A stretch of DNA of 64,000 nt from Schmidtea nova (lineage: Eukaryota), in NCBI GenBank assembly GCA_044892505.1, contig CM097882.1, positions 438,898,001-438,962,000 on the forward strand, given 5' to 3'. Below, in pieces: positions 45,168 through 58,800 of the stretch. The notes beneath the pieces are model-generated. The model was not told the DNA's origin. It worked only from the letters and a program-made list of their open reading frames with translations, and made no database searches. Each line of letters starts with the position of its first letter. The stretch's first letter is position 1. The translations under genes were made by a program, and so were the position numbers.

Positions 45168-48100
45168 TGTTGGGCCAAGCAAATCAAAAGAGACCTAAAA
45201 TAAAAATAAAATAAATACAAATAAATAACGAAAAATAACTAAGCATAAAACCACATAGTCGGCACTTCAGCAAGGGTGCAACAAAGTCTGAAAGGGTGAA
45301 CAATAGATTAAAGAAAAATGTAGACAATAAAAACTCACGCATGCGGAACATCAAGAAATAACATAATAGCACCAGCTACTCAGAAATTGACAGCGAGTAG
45401 GCAGATCATCCAATAATTTACAAAATAAAGCAAATTGATTAAATAAAAGTCACAGCTGAATAAACCTAAAACTCACTGAATTAAACAAGCACAGGCAGGT
45501 ATTATAAGAAAATGATCGGAATAAACGCATGCAGACTATAATCTGATTGACTGGCTGTCAACACAAATTACTATAAATACGTACAGCAGCAAAATTCAGT
45601 GCAGTCAGTCAATTTTTACCAAGAGTCATTTCTACTGTGAGACATTTTTACCTGGTGACGATCTTGAAAGAAATCTTGTACCGAAGCGAATTGTAAACCT
45701 ATTGGAAATAAAGGTGTGTAAGTGTTCATTGTTATTATCATTTAGTATAAACCCTCATGATTTAAAATCAATAAGTTGTCCCGAAGGTCATCTGATCTGA
45801 CGGGATCTCGGGCCTCTCAGCGCAACACATTCTCATGTGAGGGCTGATGCGGCGAGTAAATAGGTGTATTAAATCAGTATGGGAGGGGTGCACATAGTCA
45901 TCATGCTATGACAACGTTGCCATCGAAATCCAACCACATAGTCATCAGGATCTAATGCAAGCGCTGTGCGAGCTAGACAACCCGTCGGTGTGCTCCAAAG
46001 GATTATAGGCACATACGAGCATCATCGAACAATAGCTTTCCTGAGTCGATACCTTAGGAGCGGTTATACATGCATCTAGCGAGTAAATTTAACAAAATCA
46101 CAGCTATAAACATAAATGATAGTAGCTATAGAAGCAAGTCGAATATACAGCTAAATGAAACATGGCGGAGGTGAGAAAGAGCGCATGAACCCGATAATTT
46201 CTGTAGGTTTGAATCGTACCGTAGGAGATCGACCATTGACTAAACTACACCAAAACAAATATCCATTCGTTCATGAGCATAAATGCCCCGCGAGGAGCAC
46301 TCGACATGCACATTTATTTAGTATCAAGTGTGATGTTTAGAATAACGTTGATCAAGTAGTGAGTGATGAACTAAAATTAAATGAATGCATTGGTATGATG
46401 ATGTCGATCAGCTGGTGAGTGCTGAACTACAATGAAATAAACGCAGCAATACAATATGATGTAGGTGAAATGATATGAACCAAATTCATAGTAAGCCAAG
46501 TCGTGTGGGTATTACAATGAATGAAATAAAATAAAAAAACAATATATCAGTGTTTTATTGAAAGGAACAAAGGAACCAGAATGGACAAACTGAGAGTAAG
46601 CAAATATTTAATAAATGGAACGATGCAGGAATGTGTTCACATGATGAGGATGATACGAATGCAGATGAAATGCGATGAATGAATATGATGACCGAAATAC
46701 CGAACAACTCTAATAACCGTCGTTTAGGCGATGTCAGCAAAGAGATCCAGCGAGAGGCGATGCCATCCCGCAAAGATGATGTTAAACAATTCTAATTCAA
46801 TTCCCAAAAGGATCAGAGACTCTGCCGAACGCCACCTGCGAGCATGGAGGCGAAACCATGTCGATGCCGATATACGATCGATGGCGTTCCCCTACCGTTT
46901 TAGAATCAGATGGGAGGGAGATCCGTCGTGGCCAGTATCAGATAACAACAAGGCTAAAGCACTATTAAAGTGGTTCCTTCAATTCAATGACGATCAAGCC
47001 GTACCCCGGTGGATCTTAACATTCCTACCTATATCTAGCCAGGAGCTGCGACAGATGGGGTATGTGCTATTGGAGTGACCCAGGTTTATTCGCACGGGAG
47101 AGTTGCGGCCATATACGAATGCTCCCGAAAATCGGAATATGGACCAGAACGAGTGGCGTACAGGAGTCCGAATGTGGGAAATATTCATCTTCCAGGACCG
47201 ATTGTGCTGGAACCCATGCCCCGAACATTGCCAGGAAGACGGCAAGGGAAGACTGGACCGAGAATGTGATCAAGATCTGGCCGAGTTTTAAAGGATAGAC
47301 AACAGTTTGTGATTAATTGTGATGTGATCCAGTGTTGAAAAATAAATGTATTTATCATTCTCCTTGTGTTCGAATGCCTGAGATATGTATGTGTTGTGAA
47401 AAGGATGGTTGGGTTGTGAATGTAAAATAAAAGGGGGTTAAATGAATTACAAATAAAACAGTCATGAGAAGGAGAAAGAAGGGCAGGCGGAAATGATTGC
47501 CAGACCATCTATTAAACCACCCAAATTTTTTCTATATGAATTCTGCCGCGTACCACGAACACATGGAGGAGAAGAGACTGCTGCGAAAGCGGGTTAAAGT
47601 CCTTGAAAGCCATAAAAGGAAACAGGACTCCGAACTGGCACAATTAAAGACAACGTGGTTTCAGCCGGAGTGGGTCAAGGTAATTCAGCAGTCCAGATAT
47701 CGGGCGTAAAGGGCGTTAGAAAATCAAGCGCGCGAAACGGCAGCTGTTAAGTTGGAACTTAGTAATTATTTACGAGCCTCTACGAAGGATTTTGTCGAGC
47801 AGCAGCTGAAGCCGCTCATACGCACGAGCACGTTTAATCGTTGGATCGAATCCACTAGCGTCTCAAACGGAACGCAAACGGATATAAGTACTAACCTGAT
47901 TTTGGAAAATCCGGAGAAGATTCACCAAACAGAGAGATCGAAGCTCACAAAGAGACGAAACCGTCTGGGTGCCAAGAGACGTAGAGAAAGGAGAGCTTAT
48001 GCTGAGAAATTAGGAATCGAAGTAGATTTCCTAAGCGGCCTGACAGAGAGACAATTGTTAGTTATCATGAATCCGGAAGTGTTGTTAAATGAATAAATGT

Positions 48101-48493
48101 TTTATGTGCAAATCATGGTTTTATGAATGAATGCGGAATGTATGGGAATTTAAATAAATGAGTGAGTGAATAAACCCAATTCATTGAAAAGCCAAAGGAT
48201 ATAATAAAATCAACCCTAGACGTATCGGAGTTAACTCAATGAATGGGGACCCGAATAAAACCACACAGACCTTCTATCGGTAGTGGTGGACCCGTGAATA
48301 AATAAGGGAATAGTAACCGCGAGGTTGCTCACCTGCCTTATCATTTCACAACGTTGATACAGTTCCAACATGATGAGTAGTTAGAGACACATCATGGGTA
48401 TCAGCAGGGGAAGCGTGTTTATCTTGGCGAGATTACCCTGACGTTTAACATCTAATATAATCTCTGTTGAAAGATCAGACCAGCACACCAGCA
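45168..48493 (+). mobile_element. Very large solo LTR-like element (3326 bp) with internal ORFs
   Basis: TGTTGG...CCAGCA ends; TSD CTGA; both ends homologous to 29647-31178; TATAAATA at 45572 with TCAGT about 24 nt downstream; ORFs 46731-47078 and 47497-48096. Confidence 0.85.
47497..48096 (+). pseudogene. Coiled-coil ORF homologous to 30219-30707, one in-frame TAA (47707-47709)
   Basis: Direct peptide similarity along its length. Confidence 0.75.
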
Positions 48494-48760
48494 CTGATAT
48501 CGATAAACTACAAGTGTTGAAGAAATATTTCCCGAAATTGACATTAATTAAATATAATTTTAAAGAAATTGAAGATGTTCCAGATAATATTTCATGTCCC
48601 TATAAAGATCATAATATATTTGAAATTCACCCACAAGCTATGATGGCAATTCGAAATCTTGATGCCTGTTTCCTGCGGGGCAAACAAATGCATTTACGTA
48701 TATCAAAAACAAATGTCATCCAATTAGCAATGGAGGAGGCGAACCACGCAAATACCACAA

Positions 48761-48778
48761 TGATGTCAGTAGTAGGAT
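48761..48778 (+). promoter_or_regulatory. Degenerate PBS, tRNA-Leu type, overlapping an in-frame ATG (48760)
   Basis: TGATGTCAGTAGTAGGAT matches the tRNA-Leu(CAA) PBS TGGTGTCAGAAGTGGGAT at 15 of 18 positions. Confidence 0.65.
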
Positions 48779-48930
48779 CTGATTTATATTATCTATTTAT
48801 ATTAAAAAAATTTTATATTTATATTTATTTAAGAATAATTATCACCACATTTCCCCCTTCCCCTTTGCGTGTCCTTTCACCACCTCCTTCTCCGTTACTG
48901 AAAGAGCCTCATTATTTTCCTGTCCCCACC

Positions 48931-49158
48931 AAGGCTACAATACTAATGCGAGACTTCTCACGCAACTTATCTTGCACATTTCCAATTTCTCTAACCTTTC
49001 ACGATTTAAAACGCTTCATTTACTCCATTTGGCACTTGAAATTAAACACCTTCTATTTCTCACACATAGGTTTCAGCGTAGCCAACGATGGAGGACCATT
49101 AGCCAAGGTATTACCGCCGGGAGGAGTTATCCACGTGACATTAAGATTACGTGGAGGT
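48931..49158 (+). CDS. Ubiquitin-like domain ending LRLRGG, in frame with Gag (Met at 49159)
   Basis: TILMRDFS...TFHDLKRFI...YFSHIG...VIHVTLRLRGG|MNE; about 75 aa, ubiquitin-like spacing. Confidence 0.8.
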
Positions 49159-50036
49159 ATGAATGAGATTAATCCCACCACCACCTTACCACCTCTATCA
49201 CCTGATGTCCAAAATCCTCACATTTCCATTTCATCGGCAGGCAGTACGAGTATCAACACCTCTACAACCCCCAACATCTTCACACCATTTTTAGATGTAA
49301 ACGGATCACCTAACGCGTGGTTATTTATTCTCGAACGATCCTTCCACGCCAGAAACATCGTGACTTCACAGCAAAAGTTCGAGCACCTTGTCTCGTCTCT
49401 CCCCACGAACTCCTTTCTAAACTCGCGCATCTCTTACCAAACCTTTTTGCAGAAGTTGATCCTTTTACTTCCCTCAAAAATGCCAGAATCAATAACTTCA
49501 GGGAACCAAAAGCAGAAATATTTTGTAAATATTTCAAGACTCAACACCTAGGTTCCCAACGACCATCCGAATTCCTGAGACAGACCATAGACAACCTAGA
49601 ATCGCTACAGCAAGGCATCACTCAAGACGATGCCATTCTTCGTCGTTTTTTTCTTTCCGCCTTGCCTCAACAAACACAAGCCAGCTTAGTGGTTTCCAAT
49701 ATTACTTCGCTTGCCGATATCGCCAATATGGCTGATAAAATAGCCAAGATTTCTCCAAATACAGGTTTCTGCAACCAAATTTCAGTAACAACACCCACGA
49801 AAACTCAAAATTCTACGAATCATTCTTTTACTCCTCTTATATTGGCAATCAAAAGTCTCACTAGAAAAGTTCAGAAGCTTGAGGCAAGACCCACATCAAC
49901 GGACCGAAAGCGACCGAGATCACACGTAATAAAGGTCCATGGATTTGTTGTTATCATCAGAGGTTTGGAGTTTCCGCACACAGTTGCCAGATCGGGCGTA
50001 ATTACAGAAATCAGAAGGCTGATTGCAAACAGATAG
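49159..50036 (+). pseudogene. gag: Gag (one C-run frameshift near 49405)
   Basis: SPNAWLFILERSFHARNI...KFEHLVSSLP, LGSQRPSEFLR, RRFFLSALP; same Gag type as 42851-43730. Confidence 0.85.
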
Positions 50037-53000
50037 ACTTCTGCATATACCACAGCAAGTTCAATAAAATAGCCAGACGCTGTCTTGAAGGTTGCAGGTT
50101 CTTTCAAACTTTTCAAGAACTCAATGACAACAAGCAATAAAAAAACTAGTACTGCCATCGTTTCATGCGGCTGAAGTAGATGGTCATCTCAATTCATCTT
50201 TTTCCTCTCCTTTTTTATTTCCTTTTTTCCTTTATCACATTCATTACTTAACTATTCACAGAATACGATGACCTGTCTGGTGGATACAGGTTCGAGCATT
50301 TCTCTCTTACTTCTCAAATGTACAGTGACACAAAGCAACACACGATTCCGCTTGAAAGCAGCTAACGGAGCTTTTATGAGCACGCGTGGAACCACCGAAG
50401 TACAGTTCATCATAGGCAACATCAACAAAACCTTCGTTTGAATTTTCAGCATCGCTGACGTACCATATCCAATTCTGGGCATCCATTTTTTTGAAAATAA
50501 TCATATCATCATCATTTGCAACAAGCGCTCTCTATCCGTCATCGATCCCAATATTAATTCCACGTCTTTAAATGACGCTTCTAATCAAAATGCTGAATGC
50601 AATACATTCTCTATCGATCTATTCTCGAACTTTGTTGACAAATTCAGCACTAATAGAATTTTCGATGATAACTTCACTCCTACAACAGGATCTTTAGACC
50701 AAAGGTTCTATTATCAAATCATTACTCTGAATTCACCGCCTCTCAGAGAGAGAGAGAGAGTGCGCCCGATCTTTGGAGAAAAATTGACATTTCTGAAGAC
50801 AGAATATGATAATTTGTTATAAGCAGGAGTGATCCAAAGATTTTCTTCACCTTGGGCCTCTCCGATCCATTTCGTCCTTAAGAAAGACGGTTCTTTCAGG
50901 ATATGTGGCGACTACCGTCGTTTAAATACCGTCACACAGCACGACTCATATTCAATGCCTCTTATAAAGGATTCGTTAGCCAAACTCACAGGTAACAAAA
51001 TATTCTCCACGATCGATCTGGCGAAGGCATACCACCAAGGCATACCACAGCTGTCATCACTCCTATAGGTCTCTTCGAATTCCTGCGAATGCTTTTTGGT
51101 TTACGGAACGCTGCATAAACATTCCAGCGACACACCGATCACATATTATCCGGACTAGATTATGTAGTAGCCTACGTCGATGACATCTTAGTCGCATAAC
51201 CTGATGCCGAAACACATAAACAGCATCTATCTAAACTCATTAAAATCTTAGAGTAACATCAACTCAAGATAAATCGTTCCAAATGTCAATTCTTTTAATA
51301 AAGTGTAAAATTTCTGGGACACACCTTATCCGCCGATGGAATAGCTCCACAAACTGAACGTTTAAATTCCATTAGACATTTTTCTAAACCGGAAACTGTC
51401 ACGCAGCTTCGCAGATTTTTTGGCGTAGTCAATTATTGCCACAGTTTCATACCTAAGATATCTGATATACTTGCTCCTTTGACTTCGCTCAGTTCGGGAT
51501 TAAAGCTATCTATTATAAAATGGACAGAGAAATCTAACGCTGCGTTCATCTAAGCTAAAAAAGCACTTGAATCAATTCAGACTTTGGCTTATCCAAAGTA
51601 TTCTCTACGTTTCAGTCTGACAACAGATGCGTCCGACGTCGCAGTTGGTGCTGTGTTAACACAGGTACAAGATGGTATAGTTCGACCTCTTGAATTCTTT
51701 TCTAAGAAGTTAACCGAAACTCAAACCAAATACTCCGCGTTCGATCGGGAACTTTTAGCCATATTTCTGTTGATTAGACATTTCAAACATTTGCTGGAAG
51801 GTAGATCCACTACAGTTTACACTGATCACAAGCCGTTTGTTCATTTAACCACTATGAAGAATCCCTCTCCCAGGCAGTTACGTCAAATTTCTTTCATCAC
51901 CTAGTTTACCAGTGACATCAGAGACATAGCGGGTAAAGAGAACATTTTAGCTGATTTTCTCTCACGTAGTGCCAAAGCTTTCTCCTTGGAACCCTTGTAA
52001 ATAAAGCAACCGAAGCTGATCTACAATATTTTCAGAACCATAAATCAAACGTGGACGGCATTGATTTTGACTCCTCACTTTCGGGAACTCTTAGACCTAT
52101 TATTGGATCCGAGCTTCGAAAACAGGCATTCCGTGCAGTTCAAGACTTACATCATCCTAGCTCGACTGCCACTTATCAGCTGCTAAAAAACCAAGTCATT
52201 TGGCTCTTTATGAGACGAGATACTAAAACATGGGTTAGTCAGTGGTTGAAATGCCAATCAAACAAAATTACTCGACACGTTAAACCACTGCACATGCACT
52301 TTCTAACAGGCAATCGATTTGATGTCGTTTACATTGATCTTGTCGGTCCTTTGCCAATAGACAATGGTTTTTCGTATCTTTTAACAATGATAGACAGGAA
52401 GACAAGATGGTGTGAAGCTGTTCCTCTACGTTCTGTCTCAGCAAATATAGTCGCTGAATCTTTCATTTCAGAATGAGTTTCACCATATGGCATTCCCAGA
52501 TAATTTATTAGCGACAGAAGAGCGCAATTCGAATCGCAGCTCTTTACCTCTTTATTGGAACAGCTTGGCATCAAACGACTGCGTTCGACTGCATATTATC
52601 CGCAGACGAACGGCCTCATTGAGAGATTTCACCGGACACTCAAGCAGTCACTACTTATACTTTCTCTTAACTATCGCTGGGCAAAAGCTTTGACTTTTGT
52701 GTTATTGGGTTGGAGAAACACACCATCCAAGACAACCGAATCGTCTCCAGCTGAATTACTCTTCGGTACAAACACTATAGTTCTCAACGAGCTCATCGAC
52801 CTCGGTGAACAACCAAAGATCGAAGAACTCAATACTGCCAGACGTCATTTCCTTGAAATTGATAGCAATCCAATGTTTTCGCTAGCAAACGCCGAAAAAC
52901 CTTTTATATCGAAATCTCTATCTTCTTCTAAACACGTATGGATTCGTGCTATCACCAATTCTATCCTTCTCCTGTCGTGCTTACTGAAAATACTTGTTTG

Positions 53001-53386
53001 CACGAGGCAGATATACTTTCTACGGATATAACCAATTGGCCTTCTAGTTCTGATGGCAAGAACACAACTAGTAGCCCGGAAACAATCGGTTCACCGGCTA
53101 GCAACGAAACTTCTAGACCACTTTCAATTTTGAAAGATTCTCCCATGGCTCATTCTAAGACTGCTTCTACTACAATCAATCCATGGGTTCACGAACGCCG
53201 TATAGGAGATAATCCTAACGCTCCAGCTAGACTGCATCGAATATTGTAAAGATAATTATTTATCTTTTCGATCCATCTCTTATTTTTTACTTTTTCTTTC
53301 ATTCTTCCCCTCTTGTTTCTCATGTCGCCGCACTCGCGTTTTCTTCACCCCATGTTACTGCTCCGCAGCTTTCGTTGGGGGCTAAT

Positions 53387-54047
53387 GTGGTGATATAATT
53401 AATATATAAATAAATATAATATTTATATTAAATATAAATTAAATATATATTAAGAGTATATTGAATATATATTTTATTATATAAAAAAGAAATTGTATAA
53501 AAAACTATAAAGATAAAAAAACGCTTGTTTTAATTTTGTGGTATTTTAAAATATACGTTTTACATTGTTGAATTTACTTATATAAATAATTCTGTGTTAA
53601 ACTATGAATATATCTGACTTTAAACTTTTCATTAAATGGAGCACTGCTGATGTTCACGCTATCGATCTATCATTAACAGATTACACTAATTATAGTGGAA
53701 AATATTCAAAAATAATTCCCCAGTCTGCTAGTCGTTATCAAACAAAACAATTTAGAAAAGCACAATGTCCAATTGTTGGGCGATTAATGTGCTCTCTAAT
53801 GTTGCACGGTCGAAATAACGAGGAAAGGATCAAAGCAAACAATATCATGATGGTTAACTCAAATGTTACAATTACGTTTAACAAAAAGAATATGGCTTTG
53901 GTGCTGTTTGCAATTCACCCACAAGTTATGACGGCAATTCGAAATATTGATGCCTATTTCCTGCGGGGCAAACAAATGCATTTACGTATATCAAAAACAA
54001 ATGTCATCCAATTAGCAATGGAGGAGGCGAACCACACAAATACCACA
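53387..54047 (+). repeat. Putative 3' LTR (661 bp) carrying host mRNA fragments
   Basis: Begins TGTGGT after the PPT and ends ACCACA; last 136 bp duplicated in front of the PBS. Confidence 0.65.
53604..54047 (+). pseudogene. Intronless in-frame chimera of RPS5 (uS7) N-terminal fragment and PTB/hnRNP-I RRM3 fragment
   Basis: KLFIKWS..DV...SLTDY...RYQTKQFRKAQCPIVGRL...HGRNN (RPS5) then VTITFNKKNMALV...QVMTAIRNIDAYFLRGKQMHLRISK..IQL (cf. PTBP VKILFNKKENALV...QAQLAMSHLNG..LHGK..RITLSK). Confidence 0.85.
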
Positions 54048-54504
54048 CACTTCATGTGTTATATTGACACACATACTAGTATTATAAATACTTGTGTGCT
54101 ATATTCATAAAGAAATACATGTGTGCGTATATTTCCCTAACCTAAAGCGGTTTTGAAAGTTGGTTAATAACCATTGAAATATTTTAGTTATATACACTAT
54201 CTGTTCATTTTTCGTCACTTAAACAACCATTTTTACTATTCAATTAACCCAAATGTTGCCACCGTCCTTTTAAAAGAACGCTCCTTATATATTTTTTTAT
54301 TTTGCATACGCTAGTTATTTAGAGATATCTATAATAAGAATGTGTTTAGCACATCACAATTACAAGTCTTGACCAGTTAACTTCTTTGTTTATTCTTGAT
54401 TTTGTATACACTGCGGTATTTAGTTCTATGATAGTGCAAGAAGTGACAACATGGCTAAAATAGTTTTGGCAACATCTGGGTTAAATTAAAATCTTTTAAT
54501 CAAT

Positions 54505-54910: not shown

Positions 54911-55888
54911 ACGAATTCAACAATTTTATCAACTATATATTCAAAAAATGTTAATCCAAAAATTCATAAGGAAAAAGGATCAGATGAAATCCATGTAACA
55001 GAGCATATTTTAATGCATACTGAAATAAAAAAATGAATCGCTAAAATTTAAGTATTTTTAAATTGTTTACATTTTTCATGAAAATTTAAATAATAATAAT
55101 AATAATAATAAAAGTGTATCATAATTATATATACATCTGGTTGCACCCACTTTGTATAAATATTTAAAAAATAATTTAAATAAATATTAAATAACCACGG
55201 GGCTTGATTGGTGTGAGAAAGTGTGGGGCGAGCCTAAGCCGTTGGGTGGTCTTGTCGAAATATGTGTAAATCTTATATGCTTTAATGTAAATTGCTTTCT
55301 GGATGTTGCAATCTTGTCGAGAGAGGGCTTGTCTGCCGAGAGGTAATTTCTCATGAATCGTCGCGAAATTCTCATGTGGTGATACCAGAACTACCGTGGA
55401 AATCTTCCATGATTATAGAAAAGAGTTTTCAAAAATGGTGGTAAATGTTTATCAATTTTCGAAATCGATACACGACTTTGAGACAGATCTGAGCATCCTA
55501 ATTGATAATTTAAATGGAAGTAACAATAATATAAATTTCAAAAATTTTATTCTAAAAGTGGAAGATATTATTCGCTATTTTTTTGCAATTGAAATCTTTA
55601 AAAATAATTTTTATTTACAATTTAAATTTTTAAAAATTATGTTTGGTTTTAGAATTTTAATTTATTTTAGGGTAAATGAAAAAAGTTAAAAGATTTTTTG
55701 GTAATATAAAAATTATGTAATTTAATGAGTTGTTTAAATAATATTAGCAAATGTTTTGGTTTTTTTAAAATTTGATTTGTAATTTTTGATAGTTAAAATG
55801 GTTTGTAATGAGATGCTTTTTTAAAATAAAATTTCCTTCGGCTGAAATTGATTTTGAATTATTAAAAATGTGCGATGTTCGTGCTCGC

Positions 55889-58800
55889 TGTGGTTTCTAC
55901 AAAGATAAGAAATCACGCTTTATTTTGAAATTATATTAAACTCAAATTTCTGCATATTCAAACAAATCTTTACATCTCCTCGTGATTTTCGTCTTCGTTC
56001 TCGTTAAAACTGGTTTTAAAATCATCAAAATATCGAGGTCTTCTGGTCCTGCCTCTATGTACATTTCGGCACAATGAGTCGAGTATTGGATTGTCAACGC
56101 CTGTTAGTCCTTCATCGTTGTTATCCACCGACACTTCGTTGACAGTCGGTCGTATGCCGGAATAGTGGCGCGGTATCCTGTTGATTTCAAAGTTGGTCGA
56201 TGAATTTACCTTCGTTACACTCCCCTCACCCCATGTCGATGCGCATTTTGCATTTGGTGGTTTAACGTAAACTGCATCCCCAACTTAGAACGAAGTGTAC
56301 TGTGTCTTCTCTTCTATATTACGTGCGCCAACTCTTTTCCACCAATATTAAAACACGGATGGGGATGGCGGCGTTCCGCATTTGTCATTAGGTGCTAGGT
56401 TGTACCAGTATACCATGTCCAATACTCCCTTGTTAATTCTGTCTGCCATGCGTTTAATAGTACGATGGTTCCGTTCTATTATACCGTTTCCTGAAGGCCG
56501 ATAAGCACATCGAAACACACATTTTACACCCCATTTGTGGCACAGTGCTTTCATTTGTGTTGACTGAAATGACGTTGCATTGTCGATCACCAGTTCATCG
56601 AGGGAACTTCGTTCTCTGAAGATCTGTTCAAGGTTCCGTGTAATAGTCTCCCGATATTCACTTCTTATTTCTCTCCATAGAGCAAAACGACTCGGTCCAC
56701 AGTCAATCACAGTCAAATAAAGCTTACTTAGATAGTGTGTAACATCCTTAGCCAGTCTCTTCCATGTCTCCTTAACGCTCAACTCTCCATGCTCCCATTT
56801 AACAGGCGCCGGATCGATAGATTGACACTACACATTCACCGATTATTACTTTTACATCCTCAAGCGTAACGTCCGGACAAAGTTGCTTTGCAAAATACAA
56901 TGTCTTCTTGGCTCCAAAATGATGCTGTCTGTGACTTTCTCGTAACAGTTCGCTCATAACAGCAACGGTGCTTACAGTTGGTTCATCACACGATTTAACC
57001 CAAGTCAGCCATTTGTTACTAACTCTTGTGAGTACATCTGCTCTGTTTTTATCTGTCGGAACAAACTCAACCGAGATCGTTAAGTCATAACTCTTTCGTA
57101 ATTCACAGATAATCTGCAGACGTCTTCGTACTAGCATTTCAGCAATTCCATGAATTTGGATTCTAGCAGTGACAGTTAAAACTGAATCTATCCAACTCCT
57201 AACGGTAGCGAAATCTGTTATTACAACTAAGTTGCTTCTTTCCCAGCTGATGGCTAAGTAAATTCCCTTTATCACCGCATCCACATCTGCAAGTTTTTTA
57301 TGAGCAAAATCGTTTTTCTTCCTCATCTATGACACATCTTCGACGATTTTACCTGATATTTCTAACACAACTCCTAATGCCAGATTACTTGCATCGCACT
57401 AGACAATTGTAGATCCTTCTTTATTTACGTGCCACTCACCAGACACCGGATCACTTTCTTTCACACGATACATCATTTTGTTGACCATTCTTAACGCAAT
57501 CTTTCCAATCTTGTCATCCCACTTACTTCCAGCACTGTGTCGTTTTATATAGCTACTCGCTACTCTCAACCATCCAGCAACTGTATAGTGCCCAACGAGT
57601 TGACCACAGAGTGAAAATAACTCCCTCTTTGACATGTCTGTAAACGCGCTGTCTGGCAAAATGTTTCCACGGTGCCACGTACGACCATTAATACTTGTTT
57701 GAAGCTGGAGACCTAGCACATTTGCATTATCAAACTTTTCCGATGGCTTTGTAATTAGCCCGTATGTTGCTAAATGGCTTATTACTTCATTGACGTTTAT
57801 TCTTGACTGGTCGACAATAATATCATCAATATAACTGTCTGTTGCTTTCCTGGTGTCTTCTCTTAAACTTAATACCTTCCGTACTATTGTTGACATTACT
57901 TTTTGGAGCCACATTTAAACCAAAACCGAGTCTTGTTAGAAATTATCCGTTCACTTTGAAACTAACCATTTGATGCTCCCATAGGTCTTTTTCAACATGG
58001 ATCTGAAGATAAGCATTTTAAGATCAATTAATATAACCTGTTCACCCATCATTAGCCATCGCCTTAATGATTCGCAACATACGTCACTTTGTCTAGTATG
58101 ACTAATAACATATTTATTTAGTTCCCGAAAATCCATTACCGGGTGAACTTTTCCTTTGTTTATTTGCTCTACTGCTAAAAACAGAATTATTCCATACGCG
58201 ACGTCTTTCGTTGGAATTATCCATCTTTCTTGAATTCACCGTTCAACCTCCGTGTCAAACTTGATCTGTAGCCCTGGATCGATTTTGTAATTTGAAATTC
58301 TTTTCAATAGAACAACTGGTTCTGCTTTCTATTTCCACTTCACGGTCCACTTGCCGTCACTGAATGCTGCCGAAAAATCACCATCTTCAATTCGCACATT
58401 CTCATTTGACTGATCCAACCTCTCCACGCTAGATACATCTACAATACTTGAAAAAGATACACCAGTCTTGTCAATTTTAAGACCACCCAGCATCCCTATT
58501 ACGTCCATTTCTAAAATCATATCAACATTTAGCGGTAGATTCATCAACAAGACACAATCAACACTCAATAATTTACCACCAACAATCAGTTGATCGTTCA
58601 CATCATGCATACACTTGACTAGTGATCCATCCACAGTCATGATACTCCAATTCCGTATAAATAGTTTCTTCGCAATTCTGACTGACACGACTGATTTGGA
58701 ACATCCCGAGTCGATCAATGCTTTCACGGACTCCCCATTGATCATGACAGAAATAAACTGCAGCGCCATTATGTTCGTGCTGGAGTAGACACTGGCGCAT

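Follow-up and report, generated by a model that had tools for sequence, protein, structure and literature searches.

Host mRNA fragments in the LTRs of Gypsy-type elements of Schmidtea nova and their reading frame into a ubiquitin-like domain and Gag

The capture of host mRNAs by LTR elements has been described as LTR-mediated retroposition, and this work also cites the Bs1 element of maize (Tan et al. 2016, PMC5131818). Like the retrocopies presented in the sections of that paper considered here, the elements of this study contain partial spliced mRNAs, several genes can contribute to one chimera, there is microsimilarity at the switch points, further rounds of capture are seen and the frame of the parent protein is often kept (PMC5131818). 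Introns were lost from the RPS5, PTB and SAM50-like sequences, and microsimilarity was found for the SAM50-like piece (11 nt) and at locus L033 (5 nt). In the retrocopies, an internal part of the ORFs is replaced and the product is non-autonomous, as far as these sections go (PMC5131818). In our elements, by contrast, the host sequence (cargo) is present in each of the two LTRs, the elements retain gag and pol with no internal ORF replaced, and the frame of the cargo is tied to that of Gag across the PBS.

Other systems share single aspects of this architecture. In yeast Ty1, the PBS also lies within the GAG reading frame; however, in the portion of the literature on Ty1 consulted, the start region is the element's own and fixed, with neither host cargo nor Ubl-GG (PMC4974528). 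In BVDV CP Rit, captured ubiquitin acts as a processing signal that is cut by host UCHs, and the cytopathic strains CP Rit and Osloss resemble our elements in that host sequence plus ubiquitin precedes a viral protein, which is there released with its exact N-terminus; according to the excerpts used, BVDV is an RNA virus with one-off insertions, and the cleavage is known (PMC8310069). Here, a heritable, diverged ubiquitin-like domain (Ubl) is fixed in a retrotransposon clade, the part that is exchanged sits further 5', within the LTR, and the cleavage is predicted. The ORF3 captures of rotifers differ from the present element in size or position in the passages seen (PMC5408684), and LTR/Gypsy elements are mentioned only in bulk in those of a further paper (PMC11410931). 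The giant Gypsy element Burro likewise has extra domains including a Ubi2/SUMO-like one, but in the part of its description available it is larger than 30 kb, with Gag at the N-terminus and the Ubl deep within a polyprotein of 4,900 aa (PMC6431247). Our elements comprise 6.2-6.3 kb with Ubl-GG before Gag, and have neither the giant size nor the multi-domain ORF1. Finally, the Cassandra TRIMs contain 5S rRNA in the LTR and thus also a cellular RNA sequence that is fixed inside an LTR; Cassandra, however, is non-coding and non-autonomous and has one conserved RNA as opposed to the exchangeable coding leader found here. Our literature search, which covered the main text of freely accessible papers, returned no account of LTRs whose cargo is exchangeable, in frame and followed by a Ubl-GG joint. 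The architecture is real and general beyond the locus at which it was noticed, and it was not encountered in the papers covered.

Host mRNA sequences in the LTR

The locus is part of a stretch of 64,000 nucleotides (contig CM097882.1, positions 438,898,001 to 438,962,000 of assembly GCA_044892505.1; referred to as the window, with positions counted from its first letter). It contains a decayed Gypsy-type LTR retrotransposon at 48619-54047, an element of ~6.2 kb (Table 1), with RT, RH and IN recognised in pol. A previous sequence-only reading had set the LTR at 53387-54047; a complete LTR is indeed found behind the polypurine tract, and its TGTGGT starts one base earlier. Similarly, the 136-bp repeat reported at 48624-48759 in front of the PBS is present and longer, with 6 mismatches to the 3' LTR over 141 bp, while the missing 521 bp of the 5' LTR have no other occurrence within the window. 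The PBS, which we take to match tRNA-Leu, translates in frame in the window family, as MVSEVG in most copies. The left-end frame had been read as open into Ubl-Gag, and it is open from 48442 to 49551 across PBS, leader, Ubl and early gag; soon after, gag loses the frame. Before position 48619, this ORF runs through unrelated DNA adjoining another repeat, and the window copy therefore lacks an RPS5 start at its 5' end. This other repeat, of 1.9 kb (46570-48493), is 82-87% identical to three other copies and has 2,822 candidates; no feature was assigned to the sequence between it and the 5' LTR remnant (48494-48618).

Table 1. Parts of the retrotransposon and of its captured sequences in the window.
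Feature	Position	Strand	Remarks
5' LTR remnant (last 141 bp)	48619..48759	+	end of PTB piece and 12-bp element end
Spacer and PBS	48760..48778	+	1-base spacer, PBS at 48761, presumably tRNA-Leu type; in frame
Leader	48779..48927	+	in frame, AT-rich; hydrophobic, then Pro-rich
Ubl, beta-grasp	48928..49158	+	LRLRGG at its end; AF2 model, Foldseek, GG conservation
gag, broken	49159..50140	+	DUF7041 capsid-type domain, Cys/His-rich end
pol	50175..53249	+	order PR-RT-RH-IN; interrupted by stops and frameshifts
Polypurine tract region	53366..53385	+	almost letter-for-letter the same in sister family
3' LTR, complete, 662 bp	53386..54047	+	TGTGGT...ACCACA
Likely RPS5 5'UTR	53546..53603	+	captured, just 5' of host RPS5 start codon
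RPS5 codons 1-82, spliced	53604..53848	+	host ATG retained, intron 1 gone (join ~53678)
Deletion site and RPS5/PTB junction	53849..53875	+	place of the subfamily's 54-bp in-frame deletion, then junction
PTB RRM3 fragment	53876..54035	+
Element's own LTR end	54036..54047	+	integrase end, non-host

In the 3' LTR, RPS5 and PTB are joined by a single frame (ORF 53601-54110). Both identities are supported by matches in the PDB (uS7, E=2e-25; PTB RRM3, E=3e-4) and by the host genes: the RPS5 piece is identical to the host RPS5 gene (L133) at 215 of 245 nt (88%), compared to 185 of 245 nt (76%) for an RPS5 paralogue, and starts ~58 nt 5' of the host ATG, whereas 136 of 160 nt of the PTB piece are identical to the host PTB gene (L129). 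Thus, the intronless in-frame fusion of RPS5 to PTB RRM3 that had been read from the sequence is confirmed; the PTB piece had been drawn up to ACCACA at the LTR end, where the last 12 bp are the element's own. The two introns of the donor RPS5 gene (45 and 153 nt) are both missing from the LTRs, the PTB cargo likewise has no introns relative to the host gene, and exon joins of both genes are crossed. The cargo was captured from spliced host mRNA.

A genome search with the window LTR resulted in 583 candidates, and all 40 that were scored were near full length with 91-100% identity. The family comprises hundreds of LTRs in solo and paired copies. Solo LTRs with exact 5-bp TSDs were present at 9 of 30 loci, and other loci adjoin a PBS or polypurine tract. 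Among 20 elements that were retrieved, five have both LTRs in full, four of them with matching TSDs; these elements are 6,218-6,302 bp long and their twin LTRs are 95.1-96.7% identical. TG...CA LTRs, short TSDs, PBS and polypurine tract are those of Ty3/Gypsy elements. We therefore regard it as virtually certain that captured host mRNA sits inside a true LTR. Two objections raised by the sequence-only reading itself did not hold: family LTRs devoid of the fragments are contradicted by the 40 full-length hits and by the observation that 29 of 30 loci with a word from RPS5 exon 3 run on into PTB (the one exception being the host gene), and a local duplication as the origin of the 136-bp repeat by the TSDs and twin LTRs. 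In the LTRs of this family, C-to-T and G-to-A changes are ~1.7-1.9 times commoner at CpG than elsewhere.

The cargo seems to have been assembled in steps. At three loci, PTB without RPS5 spans several exon joins, including the first exon of PTB at two of them; one of the three has the same LTR start, and one the same PBS, leader and Ubl downstream. The long RPS5-PTB subfamily spans both RPS5 intron sites, and the window subfamily is 54 bp shorter, in frame. This nesting of LTR types points to the order PTB, then RPS5 over PTB, then the in-frame deletion, and the older PTB-only LTRs suggest serial capture. An RPS5-only LTR as an intermediate was not found among 30 of 79 exact matches examined, and the RPS5/PTB junction is imprecise as to microhomology. 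The PTB-only LTR L132 has an internal deletion that is out of frame. At L033 (G000:C3:18889093), the RPS5 piece is longer and more host-like and has its own in-frame junction at the 5-nt microhomology; this mRNA thus appears to have been captured there a second time. A splice acceptor 5' of the RPS5 ATG was considered as a retained functional signal and rejected, as it is not kept among subfamilies.

The Ubl-GG joint and a model for the start of Gag

The window Ubl was not recognised in sequence searches of Pfam and the PDB, a word-based search for homologues returned none, and single-sequence structure prediction gave a poor model. The AF2 model, in contrast to the latter, is a beta-grasp with a pLDDT of 87-94 over the domain that matched ISG15, ubiquitin and SUMO in Foldseek (E~1e-6). 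Using HMMER, we found 56 relatives. The two glycines that close the domain and are immediately followed by Gag are invariant in all 20 aligned sequences, at a mean column identity of 19%; the alignment consists of two local families and 18 relatives chosen as long enough upstream. Of the 50 proteins in which a Gag motif was scored, 30 are too short to reach GG. Pfam ubiquitin was above the cut-off in 3 of 19 relatives, and near-authentic ubiquitin is present at the Ubl position in P0033 and P0044. The remote relatives are gene-caller proteins known apart from any DNA context. Upstream of their Ubl-GG-Gag, there is a piece of H2A in P0023, of 5'-nucleotidase in P0003, of an LRRC47-like sequence in P0009 and of Hsp90 in P0013. 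In P0023 and P0013, cargo and Ubl are separated by a PBS-like peptide; in P0009 such a peptide precedes the cargo, so not all such cargo is inside an LTR. Judged from these alignments, the Ubl-GG joint is a feature of the clade.

A protein search with Ubl-Gag identified the second local family, with 33-35% identity. This sister family is 78% identical to the window family in RT/RH/IN and 46-79% across the pol domains, has the same pol order (PR, RT, RH, IN), polypurine tract, LTR start and PBS type, and carries RMRGG before Gag. At 20 loci, partly picked for long frames, most twin LTRs are 97-100% identical: the sister family is younger, and the RPS5-PTB LTR of the window is an older, now decayed instance of the same architecture.

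Host ubiquitin hydrolases release an exact N-terminus from fusions of ubiquitin with ribosomal proteins, and fold, conservation and selection support a similar removal of the leader at GG, which would likely be carried out by a host protease of the deubiquitinase type. It is tempting to propose the following scheme. During minus-strand strong-stop synthesis, RT would copy the last 12-25 bases of U5, jump, where there is microhomology, to a host mRNA packaged along with the element's own RNA, copy toward the 5' end of this mRNA and rejoin the element near its AATAAA; with this point of return, both new LTRs would hold the host 5'UTR, the ATG and N-terminal codons. Later switches would shorten or replace the cargo. 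If the element transcript begins upstream in the LTR, the cargo ATG would open the Gag frame, and the cargo thus likely provides the Gag start codon in frame with PBS, leader, Ubl-GG and Gag. Captures out of frame would yield little Gag and few progeny. Since Ubl-GG would free the Gag N-terminus from dependence on upstream sequence, the identity of the cargo should hardly matter. The cargo is exchangeable, and which amino acids it encodes probably makes no difference. A gain in camouflage or translation from the host 5'UTR would be compatible with this. That the scheme holds in full, i. e. that an exchangeable spliced host piece in the LTR starts Gag and a host protease trims at GG, is in our judgement probable. 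The broader picture is one to which we lean only slightly: a widespread Gypsy clade with a DNA-level analogue of cap-snatching, in which the element's own U5, 5'UTR and start codon are repeatedly swapped for 5' ends of host mRNAs, any in-frame cargo is rendered harmless by the Ubl release joint, the RNA face is ever changing, and hundreds of host-gene fragments are scattered in the genome, promoter-adjacent and in both orientations.

An alternative that would spare the cleavage is that the frame is kept for the survival of the RNA: a cargo ATG out of frame would create an upstream ORF and lead to decay, and Ubl-GG would be used otherwise (as degron, decoy or for host conjugation), with the Gag leader kept or lost to the element's own protease. 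It predicts the same in-phase pattern and the same indifference to cargo, Ubl domains also have roles other than cleavage, and the two local families agree in only 23% of the Ubl surface. However, the position of GG exactly at the domain end before Gag in all 20 aligned sequences is the geometry of cleaved Ubl fusions, and the near-authentic ubiquitin in some relatives also argues against this idea, which we consider unlikely.

Frame and exchange of the cargo

On the frame of the cargo, the younger sister family is decisive. Sampling with DNA patterns blind to cargo gave 54 leader matches (51 distinct ones analysed) and 127 LTR starts, of which 100 were covered. Among the 107 sister LTRs, eight were shortened or had lost the start and could not be scored; in 97 of the other 99, the cargo start is in phase with Gag, and 93 have an ATG and no stop. 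Two LTRs are frameshifted, and L315 has lost the start. Since the twin LTRs of one element were counted separately, only cargo types can be taken as independent. There are nine types: PP2A-A (29 LTRs, E=1e-52), SAM50-like (nine), the unnamed MNEV (32), MDVD (20) and MDSS (five), and, in a single LTR each, MCM8 (an internal part of the gene, not the 5' end), a presumably Aurora-like kinase, a FERM protein and the unnamed MWFR. All nine are in phase with PBS, leader, Ubl-GG and Gag, and six further length variants all differ by multiples of three and are in phase. The host frame is independently known for five cargoes (PP2A-A, MCM8, kinase, FERM and SAM50-like); host genes were located for RPS5, PTB and the SAM50-like cargo, and four of the nine sister cargoes have no host-gene match. 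In the SAM50-like cargo, the 37 nt before the ATG are identical to the host gene, an intron of 79 nt is gone, the second exon is 100% identical, and the 11-nt microhomology lies at the 3' junction. Moreover, in six of the nine types (L217, L215, L277, L224, L265 and L278), the shared LTR sequence stops ~10-25 nt past GGCG...AATAAA, consistent with rejoining at the 3' end of the element.

Could the cargo be an untranslated passenger of U5, with the PBS-overlapping ATG (MVSEV) as the start of Gag and the frame match due to chance and a codon-phase bias of microhomology? The codon at the LTR/PBS border is an in-frame ATG in 35 of 36 copies of the window family, the amino acids of the cargo are weakly or not constrained, and the chance of a same-phase microhomology, 0.40-0.46 per junction, exceeds one third. 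Yet even at 0.46 each, nine in-phase types have a probability of ~0.001, or ~0.02 if only the five whose host frame is known are counted; the six length variants are in phase as well. Moreover, L256 and L278 of the sister family, like P0013, P0014 and P0023, have a codon other than ATG at this border and are still read through. We consider a silent passenger quite unlikely and selection on the reading frame highly probable.

The sequence-only reading had envisaged one ORF from the RPS5 ATG. The sister family backs such an ORF strongly; for the window family, its traces are the modal lengths, and none of 25 5' copies is open from ATG to GG. The RPS5 part is present in 112 of 119 non-redundant LTR ends, and the distance from the ATG to the PTB end has modes of 432 nt (25 LTR ends) and 486 nt (24) and is divisible by three in 59 of the 112. 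The modal segment lengths from the LTR end to GG all keep the frame (17/29, 15/30 and 19/30), and there is no stop among the differences from the host that are common to at least 30% of copies. Taken by itself, this frame evidence is suggestive only. A programmed frameshift at a T-run in early gag was rejected; the run differs in length among copies, which fits slippage.

The strength of selection differs between the parts. In the sister family, the shared variants of the Ubl (1N/8S, omega ~0.05, p=2e-4) show strong purifying selection like that on pol (omega 0.09-0.13), with 0.32-0.34 for gag and 0.54 for the leader; no clear constraint was seen on the cargo. Selection in the window family was judged by polarised and within-family counts; a comparison of copies with the host gene (ratios 0.23-0.39) was set aside because it counts in synonymous change of the host lineage. 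The ratio for shared versus rare variants is 0.17 for gag (p=0.003) and, with the host parts taken together, 0.27-0.43 (p=0.02-0.07); no amino acid constraint was detected in the leader (1.02, 8 sites) and Ubl (0.96, 12 sites). One CGA codon of this Ubl is changed in 9 of 35 copies. Changes in the element lineage are near neutral for RPS5 (14N/4S), and the PTB part has some synonymous excess (8N/8S; shared variants 3N/5S, p=0.03). This excess and the amplification of some cargoes to 29-32 LTRs, with others single, would fit cargo selected for its own activity (e. g. dominant-negative PP2A-A, RRM or kinase pieces freed at GG) or because it makes the 5' end of the RNA look like host 'self', but the cargoes are unrelated, cut mid-domain and repeatedly shortened or overwritten, and the RPS5 part is near neutral, making this very unlikely.

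If host-derived starts and Ubl release are true, these elements are expressed in a way that is new for LTR elements, with a host-borrowed start codon and a self-cleaning N-terminus. They would provide a dated natural series of template switches that marks the points of RT exit and re-entry in the first strand transfer and the mRNAs packaged. They would also show cleanly how selection can act on the frame and spare the sequence, and would offer a reason, open to testing, why mobile elements contain ubiquitin-like domains. Annotation, read mapping and RNAi design have to reckon with hundreds of such LTRs posing as retrocopies of RPS5, PTB, PP2A-A and others, and small RNAs directed at essential host genes could arise from them.

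Several minor observations may be added. In the 5' copies of L230, L262, L266 and L267, the PBS has a longer tRNA-like form, directly followed by a stop, which may be copied primer tRNA. A hydrophobic stretch lies between PBS and Ubl in both families (window 48779-48850; L217 leader), in unrelated sequences, and is possibly a membrane anchor. Elsewhere in the window, a stretch of 42 nt (55238-55280) resembles, as we presume, a flatworm spliced-leader sequence and had no Rfam match; Rfam and ARAGORN scans of the window gave no matches. A further decayed LTR element (rve, DUF7047) occupies 55970-58235 on the minus strand. In the sister family, the upstream and downstream LTRs of one element differ in cargo in L216 and L226, and L216 in addition has a tandem of two cargoes separated by a PBS-like peptide. 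Finally, G000:C3:1972648-1984356 and C3:136379132-136390739 are tandem arrays of three sister elements each, at a spacing of 5.8 kb.
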